Source of the DNA: an uncultured Verrucomicrobiota bacterium
GTDB lineage: Bacteria > Verrucomicrobiota > Verrucomicrobiia > CAZIPW01
NCBI GenBank assembly: GCA_964541905.1
Contig: CAZIRU010000004.1
Coordinates: 17,588-81,587 of the forward strand
Direction: 5' to 3'
DNA: 64,000 nucleotides
Shown here: piece after piece, positions 8,948 through 62,177 of the stretch
How the letters are laid out: each line of letters opens with the position of its first letter
Position numbering within the stretch: position 1 is the stretch's first letter
Notes under the pieces: generated by a model
Told to the model about the DNA's origin: nothing
Databases searched by the model: none
Seen by the model: only the letters and a program-made list of their open reading frames with translations
Translations under genes and position numbers: made by a program

Positions 8948-9598
8948 TCACCTCAAAGCGGTAATTTTTCTTTTAACCCCATTGCGGAAGGAGAAAACAA
9001 CGCCACCGACAATAAATTTCTTCTTGGCGCCGACATCAATAAATATCGCCGAGTTCTCCGGCAACCCCAATATTTCCACATCCAACTCCTTCGCCAAAGC
9101 CAAAAGTCTTTCATCGGCCGAAGGCTCATAATGGCAATCCAACACGCGATTTTCCAAAAAATTGAGGCCATCTTCGCGGGTATAATTTTCTTTTTCGGCT
9201 CCCGCCGTTCGAATATTCTTTCCGAAGATGATGGCGCCGGCGCTGCCACCATAAACAAGACCGCCGCGACTGATATATTCAGCCAATTTTATCCCCAAAG
9301 GCGTTGATTGCACATAATCAAGCAACCGATAAGTATTCCCGCCTCCTATATAAAGGGCATCGAAATCTTCAAGTTCGGGAATTCTCTCATCGCGTTGCTG
9401 CAAAACAAAAGTTATATCGTCGTCTCTGTTATGCTTGGAAAGCAAAGTTGAAAACCAGCCGCGACAAGAATCGAATTTATCGCTACTTCTAGCCTCTGGA
9501 ATATAAAGAATTTTGGCGCCTTTTTTGAGGAAAGCAAAATACCTTTCGTCCACTTCAAAACTCACCTCCGCATTTCCGCCGCCTGACAATATAAGCAT
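8948..9598 (-). CDS. peptidase S51 (dipeptidase E-like) / type-1 glutamine-amidotransferase-like protein
   Basis: MLILSGGG...YIGGGNTYRLLDY...GGSAGAIIFG is the S51 nucleophile-elbow pattern. The gene is inserted between gatC and gatA. Confidence 0.6.
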   Translation of the reverse strand: MLILSGGGNAEVSFEVDERYFAFLKKGAKILYIPEARSSDKFDSCRGWFSTLLSKHNRDDDITFVLQQRDERIPELEDFDALYIGGGNTYRLLDYVQSTPLGIKLAEYISRGGLVYGGSAGAIIFGKNIRTAGAEKENYTREDGLNFLENRVLDCHYEPSADERLLALAKELDVEILGLPENSAIFIDVGAKKKFIVGGVVFSFRNGVKRKITALR

Positions 9599-9659: not shown

Positions 9660-9944
9660 TTATTCCTCGACTACCCGCGGCACCACAAACTGATTCGCGC
9701 GCTTTTGGGGCGCATTCATGAGAGCTTCTTCCGGCGTAAAGCCTGGTACGGCCTTGTCCTCCTGCCAAACATTTTCCAGCGGGAAGGCGTGGGAGGTCGG
9801 CTCGACCCCTTCGGTATCAATCGCGCTTAATTGCGAAAAATAATCGAGCATCCCGCCGAGCTGCCGGCCAAATTTTTCTTCCTCTTCGGCCGTCAGGTCG
9901 AGCCGTGCGAGGGTTTTGAGATGCTTGATGTCAATATCCGCCAT
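9660..9944 (-). CDS. gatC: Asp-tRNA(Asn)/Glu-tRNA(Gln) amidotransferase subunit C
   Basis: 94 aa with IKHLKTLARLDLTAEEEEKF...IDTEGVEPTSH, typical of GatC. Confidence 0.9.
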   Translation of the reverse strand: MADIDIKHLKTLARLDLTAEEEEKFGRQLGGMLDYFSQLSAIDTEGVEPTSHAFPLENVWQEDKAVPGFTPEEALMNAPQKRANQFVVPRVVEE

Positions 9945-9998
9945 GCGGGTATTTTTTCAGAAAAAGCACACGGAGTGCAAGAAAGAATCGCATACCCC

Positions 9999-10218
9999 AG
10001 GCTCTGCTAACAAATTCTGACAGGCGCGGCGCTGTCGTAACAGATTCAGCAGTAGTAAGATGCGCAGCGCTTCCGCTTAGCTGAAGTTGGGCGGTTTTGA
10101 GTTTTAACTTCGTTTCTCGGTCGAAGTCCGTGCCTCTAGCACGAGTTTTTCCCTCAAAGCCTTGTTAAAACTCAAACCTGCCTCAACCGCTCCTTGCCAT
10201 AATTTGTTAGCAGAGCCT
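9999..10218. repeat. long-hairpin element, copy 1 (same family as 54158-54389 and 58396-58566)
   Basis: The 18-nt arm AGGCTCTGCTAACAAATT (9999-10016) is the exact reverse complement of 10201-10218. An inner T-rich arm (10086-10108) pairs with an A-rich arm (10164-10187). The core carries CGTTTCTC (10111-10118) and the hairpin CGTGC-CTCTA-GCACG (10129-10143). The right arm overlaps the stop codon of the recO-like gene. Confidence 0.75.
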
Positions 10219-10801
10219 AGCGCGTCCCGAGTTCACGCGCGGCCCAGCTTTTGAGCGATTCCAAAAGAGAGGCCCCCGACATCTCGGGCGGCTCTTCTAC
10301 GGCCGCGCGCAAAAGCCCCTGAGCTTGTGAGCGCTGCGGAGCGCTCAGGATCTCAAGCCAGCCTTCCTTGACCGCGAAACCCTCGGCGGAGAGAATTTTG
10401 TAGAGGGCCTTGAAGGTGATAAGCTCGGCCGCGGCGGGATGTCGAGCGTAGTGGGCAAGCGCTTTTTGAAAGAGGTCGAAAACGCCGCCATAGTCGGGGA
10501 GCTCGCGAAAAGTCGTGCGGAGAAAATGCGCGAGCGCGCAAGCCTGGTTAAAAGCGCCGAGATTCTGCCCAAGGGCGCAAGGCCGCTCAAGCAGGTGTAC
10601 CTCGCGCGCAAAAAATGCCTTGCCCTTGGGCGTGGCGATAAGCTCAACGGAGTCGAAAAGCCCGTAGGGAAGGGCTACTTTGATGGGGAGCGTGAGCGCA
10701 AGAAAGCCCTCCGCGCGGGTGAAAAGCTCCCAGCTTGAGTAACGCTCGGCCTTGGGCGCGCAGAGCACGACGATGCCGGAGAGAACGCGCGAGGTGGGCA
10801 T
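10217..10801 (-). CDS. RecO-like DNA repair protein (tentative)
   Basis: The N-terminus SRVLSGIVVLCAPKAERYSSWELFTRAEG resembles the RecO OB-fold start. The position downstream of phoH-ybeY-ddl is reminiscent of ybeY-era-recO synteny. At 194 aa it is short for RecO. Confidence 0.35.
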   Translation of the reverse strand: MPTSRVLSGIVVLCAPKAERYSSWELFTRAEGFLALTLPIKVALPYGLFDSVELIATPKGKAFFAREVHLLERPCALGQNLGAFNQACALAHFLRTTFRELPDYGGVFDLFQKALAHYARHPAAAELITFKALYKILSAEGFAVKEGWLEILSAPQRSQAQGLLRAAVEEPPEMSGASLLESLKSWAARELGTR

Positions 10802-10841
10802 GAGAGGATTTTCGTCGAAACTACCTGTGAAGGCAAATCTC

Positions 10842-11768
10842 CTAACAAATCGCCAGCGCGTATTTCTCCACAAAGCGCGCGCGGGCGCCACGAAGCATCT
10901 CATTTACAAGGGTCGGGAAATCGCGGCCGGTGACCGAAGCCGACTTGGGAAGAAGGCTGGTGGCGGTGAGCCCTGGGAGCGTATTGATTTCGAGAAAAAC
11001 GGGAGTCCCATCATCGCGCAGGCGAAAGTCTACGCGGGCAAAGTCGCGGCAAGCGCTGGCCTTGAAAAAGGCGGCAGATTCCTCGCGGAGGCGTTTGGCA
11101 ATAGGCTCGGCAATCTTGGCGGGAAATTCGTATTGAGTCTCTCCCGTGGTGTATTTGCGTTGATAATCGTAAACGCCTCCCTGCGGGATGATTTCGACCA
11201 CTCCCAAGGCCTCGCCATTGAGGACGCCCACGGTCATTTCGCGGCCAAAGACAAAACGCTCGGCGAGAGTGGGCTGGCCATCGAACTTTTTGAGAGCGGC
11301 CTCAAGCGATTTTTCGTTTTCGACGATTTGAAGCCCGACCGAAGAGCCTTCGGCATTGGGCTTAAGGACGATCTTGGGGCCGAGGTTTTTCCAAAGGGCA
11401 TGTGCGGGCGGGGGTGTTTGAAAACAAACGCCCTCGGGAATTTCGATGCCGAGATTGCGCGCGAGCGTCAAGGAGCGTTGTTTGTCGAAACAAAGCTGCG
11501 AGCTTTGCGAGTCGGCTCCGGTATATACAAAGCCGCGATCTTCAAGGAGCGCCTGCAACGCGCCATCTTCGCCAAAAGTGCCGTGAGTGGTCAGGAAAAG
11601 GATGTCTTTTTGAGGATCGAGCGCAGAGGGCAGTTCGTAGCTATCGAGCGTCATAAGCGCGGCCTCGGTGTGTTCTCGCAGCGCTTCATAGACGGCCTTG
11701 GCTGAGCGCAGCGAGACTTCGCGTTCCGAGGAAGTTCCCCCTCCCAAAATGACGACTCTTCCCTTCAT
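10842..11768 (-). CDS. ddl: D-alanine--D-alanine ligase
   Basis: GGTSSEREVSLRS, TTHGTFGEDGALQALLE, an ATP-grasp region, and the C-terminus EINTLPGLTATSLLPKSA. I chose the start (MKGRVVILGGG) directly after the ybeY stop. Confidence 0.9.
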   Translation of the reverse strand: MKGRVVILGGGTSSEREVSLRSAKAVYEALREHTEAALMTLDSYELPSALDPQKDILFLTTHGTFGEDGALQALLEDRGFVYTGADSQSSQLCFDKQRSLTLARNLGIEIPEGVCFQTPPPAHALWKNLGPKIVLKPNAEGSSVGLQIVENEKSLEAALKKFDGQPTLAERFVFGREMTVGVLNGEALGVVEIIPQGGVYDYQRKYTTGETQYEFPAKIAEPIAKRLREESAAFFKASACRDFARVDFRLRDDGTPVFLEINTLPGLTATSLLPKSASVTGRDFPTLVNEMLRGARARFVEKYALAIC

Positions 11769-12243: not shown

Positions 12244-13236
12244 CTAGCGCAGCGCTCGGGCTTCTTTGAAGCGCTCGTAAGCATCGATGATGCGTTGGAC
12301 GAGCGGATGGCGGACGACATCGTGGCCAAGAAATTCAAAGACGGCGACGCCTTGGGTTTTTGAGAGGACTTCGACCGATTGTTTGAGGCCGGAAATTTTG
12401 CTGCGAGGCAGGTCGATTTGGGTGATGTCTCCGGTGATGACCATTTTGGAGCCTTCACCGAGGCGCGTCAGAAACATCATCATTTGTTCGGGGGTGGTGT
12501 TTTGGGCTTCGTCGAGAACGATAAAGGCGCCGGTGAGTGTTCGCCCTCGCATGTAGGCTAGGGGGGCTATTTCGATAATGCCTTTTTCGACCATTTTTTC
12601 GACGTGGTCTTTGCCGACCATTTCGTCCATGGCGTCGTAGAGCGGGCGCAAGTAGGGGAGAATTTTTTCTTCAAGGTCGCCTGGGAGAAAACCGAGTGCC
12701 TCGCCCGCTTCTACGGCGGGGCGGGTCAAAATGATTTTGCGGACGGAATTTTGCGCGAGGGCTTCGAGCGCGAGCGCAACCGCCAGATAGGTTTTGCCGG
12801 TGCCGGCCGGCCCAATGCCAAAAGTGATTTCGTGGGAGCGAATAGCGGTAATATAGCGCTTTTGGTTGAGCGTTTTGGCCACATAGGTGCCATTTTTGAG
12901 CTGGATAATTGCCGGTTGGCGGAAAAGTTCTTCGAGAGCTTTCCAGTCATTCTGGCGCATATATTCCAGAAGATGCTCAAGGTCGAGAGCTTTGTAGGTC
13001 ATGCCCTGAGATTTGCCAAGCTTCAAGATCTCGAAAAACTTTTCTGCTGTGGCAACGTCTTCGGCTTTGCCGTCAAGCGTCAGTTGACAGTCGCGCGCCA
13101 CCAGAGAGACGCGCAAGCCCGTTTCGAGTGTTTTGAGATTGCCTTCGGCTCCAAAAAGAGAGACGAGGAAACGTCCGTTTTCAAAGTGCAATTGTTTTTG
13201 CATCGGCGCTATGATTTGAAGACAATCACGCGCCAA
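12244..13236 (-). CDS. phoH: PhoH-like ATPase
   Basis: Walker A motif GPAGTGKTYLAVA, then ILTRPAVEAGE.LGFLPGD and VLDEAQNTT. The start may instead be the Met at 13203. Confidence 0.85.
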   Translation of the reverse strand: MARDCLQIIAPMQKQLHFENGRFLVSLFGAEGNLKTLETGLRVSLVARDCQLTLDGKAEDVATAEKFFEILKLGKSQGMTYKALDLEHLLEYMRQNDWKALEELFRQPAIIQLKNGTYVAKTLNQKRYITAIRSHEITFGIGPAGTGKTYLAVALALEALAQNSVRKIILTRPAVEAGEALGFLPGDLEEKILPYLRPLYDAMDEMVGKDHVEKMVEKGIIEIAPLAYMRGRTLTGAFIVLDEAQNTTPEQMMMFLTRLGEGSKMVITGDITQIDLPRSKISGLKQSVEVLSKTQGVAVFEFLGHDVVRHPLVQRIIDAYERFKEARALR

Positions 13237-25040: not shown

Positions 25041-26030
25041 ATGTCTCTTACAGGTTCACTTTCTTCCGGCGTCTCGGCTCTAAAAAGTTTTTCAAAGGGG
25101 CTCGAGGTCATCGGCAATAATATTGCCAACGTTAATACCACCGGCTTTAAGGCTTCGCAAATCAGCTATTCCGATACCTTCAGTAATGAACTGGATACGG
25201 CGTCTTCCGCAAGTAGCACAAACAACAATACTTCACAAGTGGGGACGGGAGTGCAAGTGGCGGCCATCTCGACGGTCAATACTCAAGGATCGATTAATGA
25301 GACAGGGGTGAGCACCAACCTTGCAATAGACGGTGATGGGTATTTTATTGTTCGAAATATTCTCGGTGACGAAAATTATGCCACGCGCGCGGGAGATTTT
25401 GCCCTTGATGACGAAGGATATTTGGTGAACTCTTCGGGCTTGCGCCTGCAAGGAGTGGTGGGGGGCTCGATTAGCTACGATGTTACGCAGGATACGGAAG
25501 GTAATTTGATTTACACTTTGGATACGGCTGCCGCTACATCTCCTTCGACCGTGGGGGATATGAGTTTTACCTATTCGCTTGGCGTTGGGAGCGGGTTGAC
25601 GGTGGATAGCTCCGTTACCGCCACTCAGGCGCAGATCGAGGCCAACGCACCCTTTACTTCGGCAATTGCCTTTAGTTCGGATGGGACCATAACCGTTACG
25701 ATGAATGACGGGACGAGTTTTAAACTCGGACAGGTTTTGCTGATGGATTTTACGAATGTCAATGCGCTCAAAAAGACGGGTGATAATCTCTATACGAATC
25801 TGGCGGCGGCTGCTCCGACAACAGGTTCGGTGACGCTTGATCCAACCCTCAATCTTCCAGGGACAAGTGGTTTAGGGGTTTTTAAGACGAGGGCTTTGGA
25901 ACTTTCCAACGTCGACTTGACGGCAGAATTTGCGAACCTTATAGTCACGCAACGTAGCTTCCAGGCCGGATCTCGTATCATTACGGTAACGGATGATATT
26001 TTACAGGAAGTCGTTAATTTAAAACGTTAA
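25041..26030 (+). CDS. flgE: flagellar hook protein FlgE (short, 329 aa)
   Basis: N-terminus LEVIGNNIANVNTTGFKAS and C-terminus LELSNVDLTAEFANLIVTQRSFQAGSRIITVTDDILQEVVNL. Confidence 0.85.
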   Translation: MSLTGSLSSGVSALKSFSKGLEVIGNNIANVNTTGFKASQISYSDTFSNELDTASSASSTNNNTSQVGTGVQVAAISTVNTQGSINETGVSTNLAIDGDGYFIVRNILGDENYATRAGDFALDDEGYLVNSSGLRLQGVVGGSISYDVTQDTEGNLIYTLDTAAATSPSTVGDMSFTYSLGVGSGLTVDSSVTATQAQIEANAPFTSAIAFSSDGTITVTMNDGTSFKLGQVLLMDFTNVNALKKTGDNLYTNLAAAAPTTGSVTLDPTLNLPGTSGLGVFKTRALELSNVDLTAEFANLIVTQRSFQAGSRIITVTDDILQEVVNLKR

Positions 26031-52659: not shown

Positions 52660-52666
52660 TTAGTTG

Positions 52667-54157
52667 ATGGATTTGGTTGCATTCTTTTCTGGCAAGGAAC
52701 TTATGAGCGCGGGTCTACTCGAGGGCGAGCCGACCAAGGGTCCGCTTTTAAAAACCATCGAACTTCTGCGCCCGGAACGCATTTTACTTTTGGCGCGCGA
52801 AGGGAGTGCCGAAGATGTAAAGACGCTTGCGGTGCTGCTTCCCGTCTACGTCCGGATGGAAACACTTCTTTGGAGCAATGGCGCTGGAGAGAGCATGAGC
52901 ACGTTGCTTGCGTTTCTGAAAGCTCACCGCGAGGAGCTTGCCGCCTATCGTGATGCCGCGATTCTCAACGCGGGAACGCCGCAAGAGCGGGCCACGCTTT
53001 GGATTTTAAAACATGACGGGACTTTTGTGGGAACGATGGTCGAGCCTCCCAGCGATTACAGTTTTTTGCCTGCGGTGCCCCAATATTTTGGCCGTGCGGC
53101 CGAAAAGAAAGAAACCTTTGTCGAGGAGGCGAGTGAAAATGCCGAGAGGCTTGAGGAGCCTTGGGTGAGTGTAGCGGCTAAGATTGGCTGCGTGGGGCGC
53201 AGCCCCCGTTTCCGGCAGATGTTGGAGGAAGCGGCGGCGTTGGCCAATCATCCTACCCCGATTCTTCTTTTTGGCGAAACCGGCACGGGCAAGGAAGTTG
53301 TTGCGCGTTTCGTGCACATGCTCAGCTCGCGTTCAGCCAAGCCCTTGGTTTGCGTCAACTGTGCTGCGCTTCCCGAAACTTTAGCCGAGTCGATTCTCTT
53401 TGGCCACGAGAAGGGTTCTTTTACGGGAGCCTACAAGCGCCAAGTGGGCAAGTTCGAGCAGGCGCACGAGGGGACGCTCTTTTTGGACGAGCTAGGCGAG
53501 CTTTCATTGGCCAATCAGGCCAAGCTTCTCCGCGCGCTGGAAACCCGCTGCGTGGATCCTCTGGGCAGCAATCAACCGGTGGAAGTGGACGTGCGGGTGA
53601 TTGCGGCGACGAATCGCAATTTGCTTCAGGCGGTGGCGCAGGGCCGTTTTCGCGAGGATCTTTACTATCGCCTGCGCGCGGGGGAGATCGACATCCCAAG
53701 CCTTCGCGAACGCGCCTCCGATATCCCGCTGATAGCGCTGCATTTGTTGGAGCGCTTCAATGCCACGTTGGCGATTCCCAAGCAATTTTCGCGTCAGGCG
53801 CTCAAGTTTTTGGAGGCCCAACCTTGGCCAGGGAATGTGCGCGACCTGATAAATACCATCGAGCGTGCAGCGCTTTTGTGCCCGCGCAATATTATCGAGC
53901 CCGAAGACTTTCGCGTTCAGACCGAATCCTTGCGGGCGGGCGCGCTAGGCAACTCGCTGCCGGCGCTCTACCCGGGTTTTTCGGTAGAGGGCTATCTCCA
54001 AAAGATTCGCCGCGATCTTTTCGAAAAGGCGCTGGCGCAAGCGGGGGGCTCGCGGGGCGAGGCGGCCCGCCTTTTGGGCATCACCCCCCAAGCCATCCAC
54101 AAATATCTCAAGCAGCAGGAGCAGGAAAACCTCATGCAAGAGAAGAACCCGCAATGA
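52667..54157 (+). CDS. sigma-54-dependent transcriptional activator (bEBP) with a non-receiver N-terminal domain
   Basis: AAA+ Walker A motif [14 protein letters not shown]-type loop [26 protein letters not shown], and a C-terminal Fis-type HTH ([18 protein letters not shown]). The N-terminal ~190 aa lacks the receiver DD/D/K pattern. Confidence 0.85.
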
Positions 54158-54389
54158 GAGCGTGTTTAGAATCTCTTCGCCATATTGCGCCGCATAATTT
54201 GCTGATAAACAATAATGAGCGGCGCCCTTCGGGTTGGGCGCTTTTGTGTTTTGGCGGCGTTTCTCGTTCGCATTTCGGGCTTCTAGCCCGTGTTGCTCGC
54301 TCGAAGAACCCCGATTTCATCGGGGCTTGGCCTTGCCAAAACGCCAAAATCATCCCAACAATACTGCCAAATAGATTCTGAACACGCTC
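54158..54389. repeat. long-hairpin element, copy 2 (same orientation as copy 1)
   Basis: GAGCGTGTTTAGAATCT (54158-54174) starts on the base after the activator stop codon. It pairs with AGATTCTGAACACGCTC (54373-54389) as 17 bp with one G-T. The core at 54233-54289 is homologous to copy 1 (27/35 over the CGTTTCTC...TCTAGC block) and to copy 3 (39/49). Confidence 0.75.
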
Positions 54390-54465
54390 TAAGGGCTTTT
54401 GTTTTGGGTGGCACGCAGCCTTGCGTCGAGCGCACCGCGAATTGCCGTGCAAAACGCCCGCGCCT

Positions 54466-55062
54466 CTACTTTACCTCAGCTATGGGGCAATCCGCGCGGA
54501 TGCCTGCAAAGTCGGCCGGGCAGGTGCGGAACTTATTCTTGTACATTCCCGATTCTTTTGGTCGCGGGTCGCGCTGATTAAACTTGGCGTTGGGCTTTTT
54601 GTCGTAGGTCACCGATACCTGTCCATGGATCGTGTGATAGGTCAGTTGTGCGATCGGCATTCCCGCATAAACACGCACGGGTTTGACGACGGAGAGCTCC
54701 ATCGTCCAAAAATTGCAAAAGCCCACGTCCCCGCGACCGGCGGTCAGGTGGATGCAAATGCCCAGCCGTCCGGTGCTCGATTTTCCGTCCAAATAGGGCA
54801 GGTGCTTATGGCTCTCGGTGTACTCAAGGGTCGAGCCCAGATACAGCGTTCCGGGCTGCAACACAAAACCCTCTTGCGGGATCTCGAAGTGCCGGAGCTC
54901 ATTTCTTTTGGCGGCGTCCAGCACGTCCATGTCATAGACGGCCAGATGCGGACTCAGATGCACATCATAGCTGTTGGAGCCCAGACATTCGCTGTCAAAC
55001 GGGTCTATTACAATGGAACCTTCGCGAATCGCCGCAAGGATAGCTGTGTCAGAGAGGACCAT
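54466..55062 (-). CDS. dcd: dCTP deaminase
   Basis: The N-terminus MVLSDTAILAAIREGSIVIDPF, plus GKSSTGRLGICIH.TAG.GDVGF and WTMELS. Confidence 0.85.
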   Translation of the reverse strand: MVLSDTAILAAIREGSIVIDPFDSECLGSNSYDVHLSPHLAVYDMDVLDAAKRNELRHFEIPQEGFVLQPGTLYLGSTLEYTESHKHLPYLDGKSSTGRLGICIHLTAGRGDVGFCNFWTMELSVVKPVRVYAGMPIAQLTYHTIHGQVSVTYDKKPNAKFNQRDPRPKESGMYKNKFRTCPADFAGIRADCPIAEVK

Positions 55063-55095
55063 CGCGATGCATTCTAAAATTCCGCGTCTCGCGGG

Positions 55096-56484
55096 TCAAT
55101 TAAATTGTGCTGGCGCGGCAGCGATTGCGGTTTTGCCGCTCTTGGAGCGCGATACCCAAACAAATCTCCCCACCATAAAGAGTCCCGAAAGCATGATGCC
55201 GCTGCAATAGCCCCACCAGACTCCTTCCGCCCCCAATTGCCAGTCAAAGCCCAAAACCCACGCCAGCGGCATTGCCACCAGCCAAAAAAGCCCCATGTAT
55301 GCGCCGGCAGGCACGACGACATCTCCGAGCCCTCTGAGCGCCCCAATACTCACGCAATCCACCCCGTCAAAAACACGGAAGAGCGCCGCAATCAGCAGCA
55401 GGCTTACGCCGATTGTTTGGATCTGCGGATCCCCGGAGAAGAGAGCAAAGATTTGCTCGCGAAAAACGATCATGCCCGCCGAGGCCGCGGCGCAAAAGAG
55501 GAGCGCCAAAAGAACTCCCCCTCGATAGATGACGCGCGCAAGCTCAAGATTGCCGGCTCCATAGGCGCGTCCCACGCGATTGGCCATCGCATAGGAGAGG
55601 CCCACGGGAATCATATAGATCGCGGCATCAATCATGCCGACGATCCGATTGGCCGCCAGCGCGCTTGCGCCGAGCGTGCCTATCCAGATGCCTCCGACGA
55701 TAAACGCAAGGTCCGAAACGACGATTTGCGCACCGCTCGAGGCGGCCATGCGCAGTTGCGTCCCCAAAAGTTCCAGCGGCACGCCCTTGCGGTCAAAGGG
55801 TTTGGCGAGGACGCCTTGCGGTTTTTTGGAGTGCAAAAAAAGTCCCGCGGCAATTATCGTTCGCGCCAGAAACGTGGCCACGCCTGCGCCGGTAACGCCC
55901 AACTCGGGGGCGCCGAGCTTTCCGTAGATAAAAACCCAATTCAAAAATATATTGAGTCCCAAGAGCGCCAGCATAAACGCAAAGGGAACCCACGGTTTGT
56001 TTAGCGCCTCATAGTAATTTCGCAGCGTCTGGAAGTTCAGGGCGGGAATGAACGAAAGGGCCACCCACAGCGCGTAAGGTTTTGCGAGTGCCGCGACCGC
56101 CGCTTCTTGCCGCATCCAGTCAAATACGGGCATCAGCCCAAGCGTCAAAACCACACCCGCCGCGCTATATACAAAGGCAGTCCACAGCCCCAAGTAAAGG
56201 ATGCCGCGCGCACGTTCGTTTTTGCCGGCGCCGAGAGCCTGTGAGGCCAGCGCCGAGACCGCTTGCCCGATCCCCAGTCCGCCAAAGAGAATCAAAACGA
56301 CCATCATCCCGCCAAAGGCCGCTGCGGCCAGGTCAAGAGTGCGATAGTGTCCCAGCATCAGCGCATCCGTCAGTTGTACCAGCGAATGTCCGACCATCCC
56401 GAGCGCGATGGGAAGCGCCAGGTGCCACGTCTTGGGGATTTCCTTGAGAAGGGCCCCAAAAGCTGCGGGTGAAAAAAGCCGCAT
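55096..56484 (-). CDS. MATE-family efflux transporter
   Basis: 462-aa, 12-TM protein with the N-terminal pattern ALPIALGMVGHSLVQLTDALMLGH typical of MATE/NorM pumps. Confidence 0.8.
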   Translation of the reverse strand: MRLFSPAAFGALLKEIPKTWHLALPIALGMVGHSLVQLTDALMLGHYRTLDLAAAAFGGMMVVLILFGGLGIGQAVSALASQALGAGKNERARGILYLGLWTAFVYSAAGVVLTLGLMPVFDWMRQEAAVAALAKPYALWVALSFIPALNFQTLRNYYEALNKPWVPFAFMLALLGLNIFLNWVFIYGKLGAPELGVTGAGVATFLARTIIAAGLFLHSKKPQGVLAKPFDRKGVPLELLGTQLRMAASSGAQIVVSDLAFIVGGIWIGTLGASALAANRIVGMIDAAIYMIPVGLSYAMANRVGRAYGAGNLELARVIYRGGVLLALLFCAAASAGMIVFREQIFALFSGDPQIQTIGVSLLLIAALFRVFDGVDCVSIGALRGLGDVVVPAGAYMGLFWLVAMPLAWVLGFDWQLGAEGVWWGYCSGIMLSGLFMVGRFVWVSRSKSGKTAIAAAPAQFN

Positions 56485-56566
56485 AATAACCGCATAACAA
56501 ATACAGGGCGTTTTGGCAAATTTTTAGACTTGGCCTGCCCAAAATTTGTTGTCAGGATGAGCGTGC

Positions 56567-57274
56567 ATGGCAGAAGAACATATTTCCCCTTCACGTCCTT
56601 TGGCGGTCGATTTGGATGGGACGCTGATCAAAACCGATTCGCTGCTGGAGGCTTGCGCGGCGCTTTGGTGCGCGGAGCCCTTTGCGTTTGTGAGGCTTCT
56701 CTTTTCGTCGGTTTTTTCCAGCGCGGCGGCGTTCAAGTGGGCGCTTTTTTCTCGCGTGGATTTGCAAACCCTTGAGGTTCCCTTTAGCGAAGCGCTCCTC
56801 GAGTGGCTGCGCGCGCAGAAGGCCTCCGGTCGCAGCCTTTTGCTTGTGAGCGCCACGCCGCAATTCTGGGTCGAGCGTTTGGCGGCGCGTGCGGCCGAAG
56901 CGGGCCTGCGTTTTGATGAAAGCATTGGCAGCACTCCGGTTGAAAATCGTCGCGGCAAGGGCAAGGCGGCGTACTTGGTCAAGCGTTTTGGCCGCGGCGG
57001 CTTCGACTACGTTGGCAACTCCCAAGCTGATATGGCGGTTTGGGCGGCGGCGGGCACGGCTTACAATGTGAACCCCTCGCGGCGGCTCGCGGAGTTTGCG
57101 CGCAAAAGGAAAATCGAGCTTTTGCAGATTGCCTCGCAGGAGCAAAGCCCTTTTATGGAGCGCTGGGATGAATTTCTGCGGATGCGCTCGGGGCTGGCAC
57201 TTTCAGCTTTTGCAGGGATGTTGACAGGGCTTGTCGGCTGGGCGGCATGGACGGGTTGGGGGCTTTTCTTATGA
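56567..57274 (+). CDS. HAD-superfamily (subfamily IB-like) hydrolase with a C-terminal TM segment
   Basis: DxDxT motif in LAVDLDGTLIKTDS. Later motifs are LLLVSATP and GNSQADMAVW. The hydrophobic tail overlaps the next gene (ATGA). Confidence 0.6.
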   Translation: MAEEHISPSRPLAVDLDGTLIKTDSLLEACAALWCAEPFAFVRLLFSSVFSSAAAFKWALFSRVDLQTLEVPFSEALLEWLRAQKASGRSLLLVSATPQFWVERLAARAAEAGLRFDESIGSTPVENRRGKGKAAYLVKRFGRGGFDYVGNSQADMAVWAAAGTAYNVNPSRRLAEFARKRKIELLQIASQEQSPFMERWDEFLRMRSGLALSAFAGMLTGLVGWAAWTGWGLFL

Positions 57275-58395
57275 TTGCACTTGACGTTACTACCACCCTG
57301 CGAAACCGTTCGCTTACGGGCATCCAGCGTGTCGTCATCGAATACCTGCGCGCCTTTCGCGAGCTGCGCGAGGACGTTCGTGCGGTGCGCGTCGAAAAGA
57401 GCAAGGGGCTTTTCGCGCTTTCCGAGCGCGAGACGACCTCGCTTCTCGAGCGCGGGCTCAACAACCGTCCGGCTTTGCGGCGCAAACGCTGGCAATGGCT
57501 GCGCAACGCGGGCGTTCCCTTGCAAATTTCCTCTACCGACGTGCTTTTTGCGCCGGAGTTTTTTGATGAGGCTCTTCTGGAATACCTCCCGCATTTTTCT
57601 CGGAGCGTTGCAATGCTGCACGATCTCAGCGCGCTCAAACATCCGCAATGGGTAACTAGCCCCAAGATGGCTGCCGCCTATCCGCGTTACGCTTTGGCTT
57701 TGTCACGTTTTTCGCGTGTAGTAGTTCCTTCGCTTGCCTCCAAGACCGATTTGGAGCGCTATTGGGATTTCCTTGAGCTTCCTTTGCGCCCGGGCGTGAG
57801 CGTCGTTGAGCACGGTCTGCGCGAGATTGGTTCCGGCGAGCTTCGCAACGCTCCTCCTTCGGATGCGCCCAAAAACCTTTTGTGTTTGGGCACGCTTGAG
57901 GCTCGCAAAAATCATCTTTGTTTGCTGGAGGCCTGCCACAAGCTCTGGCAAAACGGCGAGCATTTCACGCTGACGGTGGTTGGGGCGCAAGCTTCAAGCG
58001 GGGCCGCTGCCGCTGAGAAAATCCTCCAGCTTGCCAAGGAGGGCTTCCCCGTCCATTGGCGCGGGACGCTCAGCGACGTTGAGATTTCGCAGCTCTGGCG
58101 GAGCGCTTGGGCCTTCGTCTATCCCTCTTTCGAGGAGGGCTACGGCCTTCCGGTGATGGAAGCTCTTTCGCGCGGCGTGCCGGTCGTGTGCGGGACGGGT
58201 GGGGCCTTGCGCGAGCGCGTACGCGAGGGCGGCTGCGAAGTGTGCGAAGCTGTGGACGCGGAGGGCCTTGCGCGCGGGGTCAAAAACATCCTCAATCCCT
58301 CCGAGCGCGAGGCGCGTGCGGCCGAAGCGCGCCGTCTCAAGCCCCGCAGCTGGCACTCCGCCGCCAAGGAGCTCTTGACTCTTTTGCGAGCCTAA
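57271..58395 (+). CDS. family-4 (GT-B, Glycos_transf_1) glycosyltransferase
   Basis: The C-terminal pattern AWAFVYPSFEEGYGLPVMEALSRGVPVVCG is the EX7E GT4 signature. Confidence 0.8.
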   Translation: MIALDVTTTLRNRSLTGIQRVVIEYLRAFRELREDVRAVRVEKSKGLFALSERETTSLLERGLNNRPALRRKRWQWLRNAGVPLQISSTDVLFAPEFFDEALLEYLPHFSRSVAMLHDLSALKHPQWVTSPKMAAAYPRYALALSRFSRVVVPSLASKTDLERYWDFLELPLRPGVSVVEHGLREIGSGELRNAPPSDAPKNLLCLGTLEARKNHLCLLEACHKLWQNGEHFTLTVVGAQASSGAAAAEKILQLAKEGFPVHWRGTLSDVEISQLWRSAWAFVYPSFEEGYGLPVMEALSRGVPVVCGTGGALRERVREGGCEVCEAVDAEGLARGVKNILNPSEREARAAEARRLKPRSWHSAAKELLTLLRA

Positions 58396-58566
58396 GAGCC
58401 TATCCCGATAGGAGAGCGTAGGCGAGGCGCGAGGATTTTTGTTTTTTAGCAAGGCTTCGGAGGAGGAAGTGGGCTAGAAGCCCATACTCCGGGGGAGAAA
58501 CGCCGCTAAAAGACAAAAAGACCGCGAGTTTCTCGTCCGCGCCAGCTAACCTATCGGGATGGGCTC
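58396..58566. repeat. long-hairpin element, copy 3 (reverse orientation relative to copies 1 and 2)
   Basis: GAGCCTATCCCGATAGG (58396-58412) starts on the base after the GT4 stop. It pairs with CCTATCGGGATGGGCTC (58550-58566) as 17 bp with one G-T, and the right arm overlaps the stop of the AP2-like gene. The reverse complement of 58471-58519 matches 54241-54289 at 39/49 positions without gaps. Confidence 0.75.
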
Positions 58567-59078
58567 TAACCCTTTGCCCCTTCGTCGGCTTGGCCTTGCA
58601 GTCTTTTCTTTGCGGCGATTTTCCTGAATACGCCTGCGCCAAAGCGGCGGATGAGGCCCTTGTTGCGGATTCGGCAGGCTTTTTTCAAAGCCTTTTCCTC
58701 GCCATACTTCAAAATCGAGATGCTTGTGGTTCGCTGCACTCCCGGCATCGGGTGCCAAGTCACCAGATAATAGGGGGCGCTTGTGCCGTCGGCTTTCTTT
58801 TTGTTGACGCGGGTCACTCCGATGACTCCCGAGCGGTTTCTTTTGTTTTTGCAAACAATGTTTTTGCCTCGCACGCGGATGCCCTGACGTTGCAATCGCG
58901 AGAGTGTTTCGTCGCGGAAGAGTCGGGCGGCTGTTTGGGAAAGTCGTTTTCCGCCGGCGGCCTGATCGCTAAAAAACTTCATAATGCGCTCATCTCCCCT
59001 GACGATGCGCACCAACCAGCCGCCGCTTGAGGGCTTTTCCATTCTCGAGATATTGCGATTGGGATTCGGCAAAGCCAT
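58566..59078 (-). CDS. putative DNA-binding protein with two AP2/ERF-like repeats (tentative)
   Basis: Two segments resemble AP2-type beta-sheet-plus-helix units. They are GGWLVRIVRGDERIMKFF...AARLFRDE and GVIGVTRVNKKKADGTSAPYYLVTWHP...YGEEKALKKACRIRN. The protein is basic. Confidence 0.35.
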   Translation of the reverse strand: MALPNPNRNISRMEKPSSGGWLVRIVRGDERIMKFFSDQAAGGKRLSQTAARLFRDETLSRLQRQGIRVRGKNIVCKNKRNRSGVIGVTRVNKKKADGTSAPYYLVTWHPMPGVQRTTSISILKYGEEKALKKACRIRNKGLIRRFGAGVFRKIAAKKRLQGQADEGAKG

Positions 59079-60713: not shown

Positions 60714-62177
60714 CTATTTTTCCGGAGCCGCGGGATCCTCGGGCCGCGAAAAATAGCCCCAGATTCCCTCCAGCGGGAGCGCTTTTGCTGATTTTTGAGC
60801 TAGAAATTTCTGAAGATCTCCGGCAAAAGCCTTGGGGACGTCCAACGTAAAGGCGATGCGCCCCTTTCCGAGCGAAGCGGCCAGATACAGACTTCCTTTT
60901 TCTCCCGAATACGGCGCCCCCGAAAGATCGTTCCAGAGTTTCGAGGCATCCGCTTTGGCTTGCAGGCACAAGGTGGGGTAGAAGGTAAACGCCTTGCTAA
61001 GCATTTTTCCTGACGCGCCTTTCGAGCTGCCGAGGGTCTCCAAGAGGGCCGTCACGCTTTCCGCCGAGGGAGCACTCAGGATATTCCCATCGCTAAGCGC
61101 CACAAAGAGGCGTTCGGAGCCCTCTTCTTTTTTGGAGAGCTTCCAGACGCTGGCGCCGCTTACTTCAAAAGCCGTCCGTGCTTGCGTCCCCTCAAAAAAC
61201 ATTCCCGCCGCGTTGAGCGCTTGGGCGCTGGTGCTGCTATTGAAGCGCCCGGTTGCAAAAATGCGCGGGGCAGCCTCGCCCTTGTAAAAGGCAAAAGCCG
61301 CATAGCCATTCAAATAGGGTAGTGCACTTTGAAGCTCCGTGACGCTTTTGCCCGAGAGCGTTTGGTAGTGAGCCAGATATTCACTCACAACGGTCGGGTT
61401 CAAAAGCGCATAGCCATACAAGAAGGCATCGTTCACCGTTAAAAGGTTGTGAGCTTCGGGAGCTTTGGCGATGAGCTTTTGGTTAAAAAGATCGTGCAAG
61501 GGTGTTCCTTGGCGCGCGGCGAGGATAAGGATCGAGCGCAGACCCTCGGGGATGGTAAAGACGCGCAGCTCGGCATAGTCGAGGTCCTTGAGCTCTGTCA
61601 AAACGGGCTTGTACGCATCTGTCAAAAACGCGCCGAAGGGATTGCCCTCCAAGGCGCCGGCAAGTACGCTTGGGGCCAGCCGCACAAAGAAAGGGTATCC
61701 CTTGCCGTCTTCGCAAGCCTCTTTGAGGGTATTTTGAGCTTCGTTGTCAAGGGGGTGTTCTTGAGGGAACCCGATGACCCCTGGAGTATTGCCCTCTCTT
61801 TCCACAAAGGTATAGCGGCCCGAAAGGCTTTCGGTGAAGTGATCCAGCGGCCCATAATCGTCAAAGCCGGCGACGACGGCCCAAAAAACATTTTCTCCCT
61901 CCTTCAGCAGAAACAGGTCGAGCGTTTGAGTGTGGCGCTGCACCCACAGGAACATATCGCGCTGACGGCCGAGTTCCGCCACTTTGCCCAGAATCGTTTT
62001 TTCCTCGGCCTCGTTAGGAGCTTTGGTTTGCTGCCAAGCCTCGATGGTAGCGTCAAACTTTTGCCGTACCAGTTCCGTGCAGTCGGCGGGCAAAAGGTGT
62101 ATACGGAGGAGTTGTTCCGGCGCGGCTACTGCGACCGAGCACGCGAGAAAAAGGCCCAAAAGAAATCGATAATGCAT
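60714..62177 (-). CDS. secreted hypothetical protein (487 aa)
   Basis: Signal peptide (MHYRFLLGLFLACSVAVAAPE). No recognisable motif. Upstream of the MCE gene on the same strand. Confidence 0.5.
   Translation of the reverse strand: MHYRFLLGLFLACSVAVAAPEQLLRIHLLPADCTELVRQKFDATIEAWQQTKAPNEAEEKTILGKVAELGRQRDMFLWVQRHTQTLDLFLLKEGENVFWAVVAGFDDYGPLDHFTESLSGRYTFVEREGNTPGVIGFPQEHPLDNEAQNTLKEACEDGKGYPFFVRLAPSVLAGALEGNPFGAFLTDAYKPVLTELKDLDYAELRVFTIPEGLRSILILAARQGTPLHDLFNQKLIAKAPEAHNLLTVNDAFLYGYALLNPTVVSEYLAHYQTLSGKSVTELQSALPYLNGYAAFAFYKGEAAPRIFATGRFNSSTSAQALNAAGMFFEGTQARTAFEVSGASVWKLSKKEEGSERLFVALSDGNILSAPSAESVTALLETLGSSKGASGKMLSKAFTFYPTLCLQAKADASKLWNDLSGAPYSGEKGSLYLAASLGKGRIAFTLDVPKAFAGDLQKFLAQKSAKALPLEGIWGYFSRPEDPAAPEK

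Follow-up and report, generated by a model that had tools for sequence, protein, structure and literature searches.

What are the three long hairpins that stand between genes in this 64,000-nt stretch of DNA from an uncultured Verrucomicrobiota bacterium (contig CAZIRU010000004.1, positions 17,588 to 81,587; the whole stretch is called the window below)? An earlier note, made from the sequence alone, described the hairpin at 9999-10218 as copy 1 of a three-member family with a conserved core and copy-specific closing stems. It read the conserved pairing as a sign of selection on structure and held that such variable outer stems speak against a MITE (a miniature transposable element with inverted repeats). 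Our results point to a different answer. We consider it rather probable that the hairpins belong to an undescribed family of MITE-like palindromic intergenic repeats that insert at TNA, often on stop codons, and the elements resemble miniature transposons more closely than a structured RNA gene. The organism itself is placed near Opitutaceae (Verrucomicrobiota) by its GatA protein, the nearest relative among 5.8 billion proteins being 82% identical.

The observation itself is confirmed: the window elements are imperfect palindromes of 171-234 nt, and a core of about 100 nt is common to all three (Table 1). A 32-nt degenerate apex pattern matches only at 10111-10142 (+), 54258-54289 (+) and 58471-58502 (−), with 0.00 hits in 100 shuffles. 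A covariance model, which the earlier note had proposed as a check, was built on the core (model R1) and run over the whole window with filters off. It scores the copies at 90-99 bits (copy 1, 99.3; copy 2, 90; copy 3, 93.1) and the next, unrelated site at 16.8. Both the pattern and the model find copies 2 and 3 where the earlier note had placed them, at 54158-54389 (+) and 58396-58566 (−). The closing stem of copy 1 is indeed a perfect reverse complement over 18/18 nt (9999-10016 against 10201-10218), and it extends to 22/24 (92%) over 9999-10022 and 10195-10218. The inner helix described for this copy pairs at 89% between 10090-10108 and 10164-10182 and lies within the minimum-energy fold. 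The positions given for the apex motifs CGTTTCTC, CGTGC-CTCTA-GCACG and AAGCCTTGTTAAAAC are correct, as is the match of 27/35 reported for an aligned block. In an inverted-repeat scan the closing arms agree at 22/24 positions in copy 1, 22/26 in copy 2 and 20/23 in copy 3 (16/17 in its 17-nt core stem), and these three closing stems are the top three local inverted repeats by length in the window. The accessory hairpin of copy 1 has a counterpart of similar build in copy 2 and none in copy 3. A hidden coding sequence in the core was considered and rejected because the copies do not keep a common reading frame: at a site that is open in copy 2, copy 1 has a stop, and copy 3 carries a 1-nt indel.

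Part of the evidence for the MITE-like reading comes from copies outside the window. Short-read contigs of the same organism, from two runs, break 25-30 nt inside an element at 5/5 observed ends. More specifically, Logan contig L001 ends at 10028, 30 nt inside copy 1; contig L018 covers 54365-58420, from 25 nt inside the right end of copy 2 to 25 nt inside the left end of copy 3; and contig L011 starts at 58540, 27 nt inside the right end of copy 3 (30 nt with the flanking TAA) and at its 3' end breaks in the same way. A de Bruijn graph (k = 31 in Logan) breaks at repeat edges, and the closing arms are not long or perfect enough to produce such breaks by themselves. Breaks inside all five ends therefore indicate that there are more copies than the window shows. 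Contig L011 runs 309 nt past the window end, and its last 28 nt are the exact reverse complement of 54363-54390. Here a fourth copy starts, about 125 nt after the rpsI stop, behind the rplM-rpsI operon, and the 132 nt before it (L011:5611-5742) are unrelated to the flank of copy 2. A fifth copy was found with a looser three-block pattern, whose one match in JGI metagenomes is on contig L015 (62.8 bits with the covariance model). From GAGC to GCTC, closing stem included, the L015 element (228-421) is 84% identical to copy 3, and the flanks are 40% identical. The stem reads GAGCTTATCCC/GGGATAAGCTC in L015 and GAGCCCATCCC/GGGATAGGCTC in copy 3, with one C:G pair changed to T:A by compensation and one mismatch repaired, and in L015 it is perfect over 11-13 bp. 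Note that at the site of the extra hairpin of copy 2 the L015 element has a different extra hairpin.

The count of three members is thus a lower bound, although it holds for the window. In the same way, the closing stems are unrelated among the three window copies, as had been claimed, but they recur in copy 4 and in L015. Judged by their sequences, they are hence type-specific and not copy-specific: type 1 is found in copy 1, type 2 in copies 2 and 4, and type 3 in copy 3 and L015. Between types, the core is 68-81% identical. For closing arms of different copies the similarity stays at the level of shuffles (z ≤ 1.3, against z = 8-13 within a copy), and residual homology among stems of different types was looked for and none was found above shuffles beyond about 5 nt. 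Since the stems recur at unrelated loci and homology stops at the stem ends, these ends are the boundaries of a copied unit. The argument that variable stems exclude a MITE does not survive this, because the stem of copy 2 recurs in copy 4 and that of copy 3 in L015 with unrelated flanks. Several properties of a MITE are present, namely a small non-coding unit, terminal inverted repeats of 17-26 bp and dispersed copies whose homology ends at the repeats. Terminal repeats common to the whole family are not; they are shared within types only. The earlier note had named conserved terminal repeats with target-site duplications as the mark of an ordinary MITE, and conserved terminal repeats with candidate duplications are seen within types but not across them.

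All copies are intergenic and 4/5 of them lie at gene 3' ends. Copy 1 is situated between the stop of an unannotated 228-aa open reading frame (ORF; 10217-10903, −) and the start of gatC (9660-9944, −), and in model orientation it is antisense to both adjoining genes. Its right arm overlaps the stop codon 10217-10219 and the element separates this ORF from gatC, as the earlier note stated, but the recO-like label given there to the 228-aa ORF is without support, the sequence having no match in Pfam, NCBIfam or PDB. Copy 2 lies between the convergent genes for a sigma-54 activator (52664-54157, +) and dcd (54466-55062, −). Copy 3 occupies the entire gap between a GT4 glycosyltransferase gene (57247-58395, +) and a convergent 170-aa ORF (58566-59078, −), whose stop codon it overlaps. 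In model orientation copies 2 and 3 are both directly downstream of a same-strand gene. The L015 element is found between divergent genes, away from stop codons.

When the unit is taken as GAGC...GCTC (types 2 and 3), the flanks suggest a target. TNA fits 6/7 flanks of the four GAGC-ended copies, a count that is confounded by three GAGC-type flanks coinciding with or overlapping stop codons. The TGA flank of copy 2 doubles as the stop codon of the activator gene, and the left TAA flank of copy 3 doubles as that of the GT4 gene. The flank repeats are direct and not inverted, which is the form expected of a target-site duplication. If the reading is right, a transposase acting in trans would cut at the element ends, in types 2 and 3 reading (A)GAGC...GCTC(T), and the element would insert at TNA, duplicating those 3 bp. 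Both TAA and TGA are TNA. An element starting with G or A that inserted on such a stop codon would rebuild a stop and do no harm, which would account for the four ends that touch or overlap stop codons. Transcripts reading through from either side would then carry a long hairpin, which probably blocks or ends transcription, or may stabilise the 3' end or be a substrate of RNase III. Such effects on the transcript would be a by-product or a secondary use and not what the element exists for.

On the model strand the minimum-energy folds are −94.0, −96.8 and −79.4 kcal/mol for copies 1, 2 and 3 (z = −7.4, −6.7 and −8.1), each a single long rod, and 0/200 shuffles reach the native energy in any copy. 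The opposite strands fold equally well or better (−94.9, −102.1 and −93.7 kcal/mol). In the core alignment, which has four rows only and is fitted to the model, 87.8% of cells are paired and 12 pairs change on both sides, compared to 6.0 ± 1.5 in shuffles and at most 4 with slid partners. The compensatory changes cited in the earlier note are real (columns 21/105, 22/104 and 46/56). An internal helix is TTTTAAC/GTTAAAA in copy 1, TTTTGGC/GCCAAAA in copy 2 and TTTTAGC/GCTAAAA in copy 3, and the apex loop YTCTA is conserved on top of a stem that varies between GGGC/GCCC and GTGC/GCAC. A U28·G74 pair is invariant in model orientation. With pairs derived without strand bias, there are 9 G·U appositions and 10 A·C, and the consensus fold energies on the two strands are −32.3 and −31.3. 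A single-strand RNA under selection would be expected to favour G·U on its own strand, so the balance speaks against one. It is also important to note that the orientation relative to neighbour genes is inconsistent among copies. Thus the earlier reading stands as far as the pairing is conserved and covaries and the elements match no described Rfam family, but there is no sign of a strand-specific RNA. A palindrome at the level of DNA fits better than a structured RNA gene.

Database searches point to a family of limited spread. Rfam 15 at gathering thresholds gives no match in the whole window, and even at E ≤ 10 only unrelated noise falls on copy 1, with copies 2 and 3 and L015 free of hits, so the Rfam scan that had been proposed returns no described family. 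The exact apex pattern has no match in the GTDB genomes (one per species) or in JGI metagenomes, which means that the organism of the window is not in these collections. An arm pattern has four hits in GTDB; this is the chance expectation, and none of them fits the covariance model. Two patterns searched in IMG/VR found nothing. Copy 2 has no blastn match in plasmids or phages, nor in 5,426 genomes of E. coli, a species in which ERIC, REP and BIME are present. In 36 kb of relatives with 78-82% GatA identity, the covariance model and the inverted-repeat scan find no copy and no comparable hairpin. By its distribution the family is young or narrow and not an ancient conserved RNA. Pfam was run on 18 window ORFs, the eight that flank the copies and ten mid-size ones elsewhere with flagellar, chemotaxis and housekeeping genes among them; the 18 contain no transposase (Y1 or other), no integrase and no Rep gene.

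Could the same data describe an RNA? The elements might be a multi-copy structured RNA, either a cis-acting part of the 3' untranslated region (UTR) or an independent small RNA, in which the core and the rod shape are selected and any stem that pairs will do. The strong folds, the double compensatory pairs, the loop kept over a covarying stem, the invariant U28·G74 and the place of copies 2 and 3 downstream of a gene on the model strand all agree with this. However, the two strands are equivalent in folding and in G·U and A·C counts, copy 1 is antisense to its neighbours and the L015 copy lies between divergent genes. In addition, the units have sharp boundaries with TNA direct repeats in unrelated flanks, the 36 kb of relatives are devoid of them and Rfam knows no such family. 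We regard an RNA as unlikely, and the findings, as they stand, are no evidence for a new class of structured RNA. The symmetry of the strands that weakens the RNA explanation would suit a DNA cruciform or single-strand hairpin, an attC-like or origin-like site that a recombinase or HUH nuclease reads by its shape and apex loop. Such a site would also account for stem sequences varying freely between types under a conserved loop. What makes it very improbable is that no gene for an integrase, Rep or Y1 transposase is seen among the scanned ORFs, that the attC signature RYYYAAC / GTTRRRY is not conserved and is internal where it occurs, and that the copies are dispersed singly instead of being arrayed. 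A third possibility concerns function, whatever the origin: the host may keep the hairpins as bidirectional terminators or mRNA 3'-end stabilisers that insulate neighbour genes. Copies 2 and 3 sit in the gaps of convergent genes, copy 3 filling its gap, copy 4 follows the rplM-rpsI operon, and copies 1 and 2 each hold a small internal GC hairpin with a T-run behind it, which is called solely on the model strand. Comparable roles have been reported for ERIC and related repeats (PMC3184786). On the other hand, the main hairpin has no trailing U-tract on either strand, no terminator-like site is called in copy 3, and the L015 copy is in a divergent promoter region. As this explanation describes a consequence and leaves the dispersed copies unexplained, we find it quite improbable as the main answer.

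Several observations weigh against the MITE-like reading. The terminal repeats of types 1-3 are unrelated while the interior is 68-81% identical. A MITE usually shows the reverse, and a single transposase would hardly account for this. Faster decay of the stems does not explain the types, since copy 3 and L015 are 85% identical in their outer parts and 81% in the core, a similar level. The duplication is perfect only in copy 3, matches at 2/3 positions in copy 2 and at 1/3 in L015, and copy 1, whose ends differ (GGCTCT...), has none. Neither a partner transposase (among the 18 scanned ORFs) nor an insertion sequence (IS) with matching ends was found; a parent IS was sought by blastn of the three terminal repeats against plasmids, giving only chance matches (E ~5). 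No empty site was seen, and the nearest relatives have a different gene order upstream of gatC. The internal helices covary above the shuffled and slid controls, which suggests some constraint on the pairing itself. Finally, the copies in hand are four full ones and one partial. A shared core in unrelated stems points to exchange of modules or to a core carried in different shells. In one form of this explanation, the core hairpin of about 82-100 nt is a functional or mobile module placed centrally in three unrelated palindromes or MITE shells. It is favoured by outer parts that are unrelated around a similar core, by the copy 3/L015 values, which suit module exchange better than differential decay, and by the variable extra hairpin at the same internal site in copy 2 and L015, which shows modularity. 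Against it, the 64-kb window has no solo core (the covariance model with filters off returns only the three full copies) and no core-less shell or solo terminal repeat, direct repeats do not bound the core inside the shells of copies 1-3, and the left-side homology between copies 1 and 2 fades gradually without a sharp end. We leave this form a small but appreciable probability. Put more generally, at least three pairs of terminal repeats, unrelated to one another, surround one conserved core of about 100 nt, either because the module enters or is captured by different palindromic shells or because an enzyme mobilises the whole element by reading hairpin shape and apex and not the terminal-repeat sequence; to this too we give a small but appreciable probability. 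The MITE-like reading remains our preferred one.

Table 1. Positions of the repeat elements, their parts and their flanking trinucleotides (window coordinates unless a contig is named)
Feature	Position	Strand	Description
Copy 1 (type 1), whole element	9999-10218	+	220 nt, imperfect palindrome
Copy 1, left closing stem / terminal inverted repeat	9999-10022	+	AGGCTCTGCTAACAAATT...; pairs with 10195-10218
Copy 1, accessory hairpin	10026-10070	+	GC-rich stem, AT-rich loop (from fold and alignment)
Copy 1, conserved core	10086-10187	+	T-rich 5' arm, CGTTTCTC, apex hairpin 10129-10143, GCCTTG..AAAA A-rich 3' arm
Copy 1, right closing stem	10195-10218	+	last 2 nt fall in the minus-strand ORF's stop codon (10217-10219)
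Copy 2 (type 2), whole element	54157-54390	+	GAGCGTG...CACGCTC unit is 54158-54389
Copy 2, flanks	TGA 54155-54157 / TAA 54390-54392	+	candidate 3-bp target duplication, 2/3 matching
Copy 2, core	54233-54359	+	carries extra hairpin CCCCGATTTCATCGGGG (54309-54325)
Copy 2, right terminal 28 nt	54363-54390	+	identical, reverse-complemented, to the end of Logan contig L011
Copy 3 (type 3), whole element	58396-58566	−	171 nt
Copy 3, flanks	TAA 58393-58395 / TAA 58567-58569	+	perfect 3-bp direct repeat around GAGCC...GGCTC
Copy 3, core	58428-58526	−	covariance model match
Copy 4 (type 2), start	L011:5743-5770 (~282-309 nt past window end)	inverted relative to copy 2	28 nt visible
Copy 4, flank			TAA at the single visible end
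L015 element (type 3), flanks			TGA / TTT, 1/3 matching

Some further observations concern the surroundings of the copies. The 170-aa ORF next to copy 3 matches nothing in NCBIfam or PDB, and its only Pfam match, to the AP2 DNA-binding domain, is sub-threshold (E = 7.7e-4, 20 bits with a cut-off of 33). Domains of the AP2 type are often tied to mobile elements; for this ORF no link to the repeats is shown. In the spacer between rpsI and copy 4 (L011:5611-5742) there is a weak resemblance to the core, TTGCCTTTTGCCGGCGGTTTCTTGG compared to TTGTCTTTTAGCGGCGTTTCTCC, with a score that 3-5 of 300 shuffles reach and no match to the covariance model; it may be a decayed remnant or chance. The neighbours of the L015 element are a fragment of a site-2-protease-like (RseP-like) gene, named from its reading frame only, and a 100-aa orphan ORF (L015:466-768, +) whose only database match is itself, on two short contigs. 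The second of these contigs has the same 300-nt gap between the two genes.

Around copy 1 the gene order differs from that of the relatives. Upstream of gatC, the relatives have pheT directly (L006:7286-9997 and L009:456-3293), and the window has the 228-aa ORF and copy 1 (9945-10903). A peptidase S51 gene (dipeptidase E-like; 8948-9598, −) stands between gatC and gatA. As gatC and gatA are adjacent in the relatives L006 and L009, this gene is a lineage-specific insertion into the gatCAB operon. A phoH gene is found at 12244-13236. Flagellar and chemotaxis genes extend across 15861-46810, with cheR, a rod protein and two flagellin genes recognised by Pfam. Copies 1 and 2, in the same orientation, bracket this stretch of about 44 kb, which is probably a coincidence. 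Within it, a 36-nt motif is repeated at 25115 and 38634, which probably reflects an N-terminus conserved among rod-family proteins. The 487-aa ORF at 60714-62177 (−) has no Pfam family on record.

What would follow from the MITE-like reading? If it is true, these elements are a first view of the small mobile repeats of an Opitutaceae-like lineage that has been sampled poorly. They fragment short-read assemblies, every observed element end being a contig end, and therefore matter for binning. Elements lying directly on stop codons matter for annotation and for the inference of 3' UTRs in this lineage. The only unusual feature is that one core occurs in three unrelated terminal repeats. If this holds genome-wide, it bears on how MITE families originate and on whether the enzyme always reads the sequence of the terminal repeat. 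Recognition by shape and apex, if true, would be a structure-guided mode of mobilisation not described for MITEs.

Known systems resemble the window elements to different degrees. Retron non-coding RNA and 6S-like RNA were considered and rejected, the first because there is no reverse transcriptase and the second because the element is multi-copy and has no Rfam match. Integron attC sites, too, are imperfect palindromes that keep their structure although their sequence differs to a large extent from copy to copy. However, attC has conserved boxes at its outer ends and a variable middle, and the window elements are the opposite. They occur without cassette arrays and, among the 18 scanned ORFs, without intI, and the GTTAAAA-like motif of copy 1 changes in the other copies. 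We therefore rejected attC identity: TTTTAAC/GTTAAAA is internal and not conserved, and the copies are single and dispersed. The REP, BIME and REPIN repeats, which depend on RAYT Y1 transposases, are similar in being intergenic hairpin repeats of mosaic, modular build with lineage-specific sequence. REPs are units of 20-40 nt that carry a conserved GTAG at the 5' end, and a REPIN is an inverted pair of REPs, whereas here we have a single palindrome of 170-230 nt with a conserved centre and no GTAG ends, and no RAYT gene was seen. REP/REPIN identity was rejected on unit size, central conservation and the missing GTAG ends.

As to the ends, the closest likeness is to other transposon groups. Elements of the IS5 family (IS1031, ISL2 and IS427 groups) and of PIF/Harbinger (Tourist-like) make 3-bp TNA or TAA duplications and have GAG or GG ends. 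The window elements differ from the MITEs of these groups in that a perfect duplication is restricted to one copy and copy 1, with GGCTCT... ends, has none, and neither a partner transposase (18 window ORFs) nor an IS with matching ends (plasmids) was found. As to the build of the whole element, the most conserved part of ERIC is also central. ERIC/IRU, YPAL and Correia (NEMIS) elements are non-coding intergenic palindromes of 100-230 nt that fold up as a single long hairpin whichever strand is taken, are frequent at gene 3' ends and co-transcribed, may contain optional internal insertions, and are bounded by inverted repeats with short A/T-rich flanking duplications (PMC3184786). Location at gene 3' ends is reported for many bacterial MITEs (PMC3184786). 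The window elements share with ERIC, YPAL and Correia the size, the intergenic site, the palindrome over the whole element, the inverted-repeat ends, candidate short flank repeats and the internal insertions. They have no sequence similarity to them, as judged from E. coli, plasmids and phages (Neisseria genomes were not searched directly). The flanks here are 3-nt TNA and those of the known families are the dinucleotide TA. Finally, the known families have a single terminal repeat, whereas in the window elements three unrelated types of terminal repeat surround one core.

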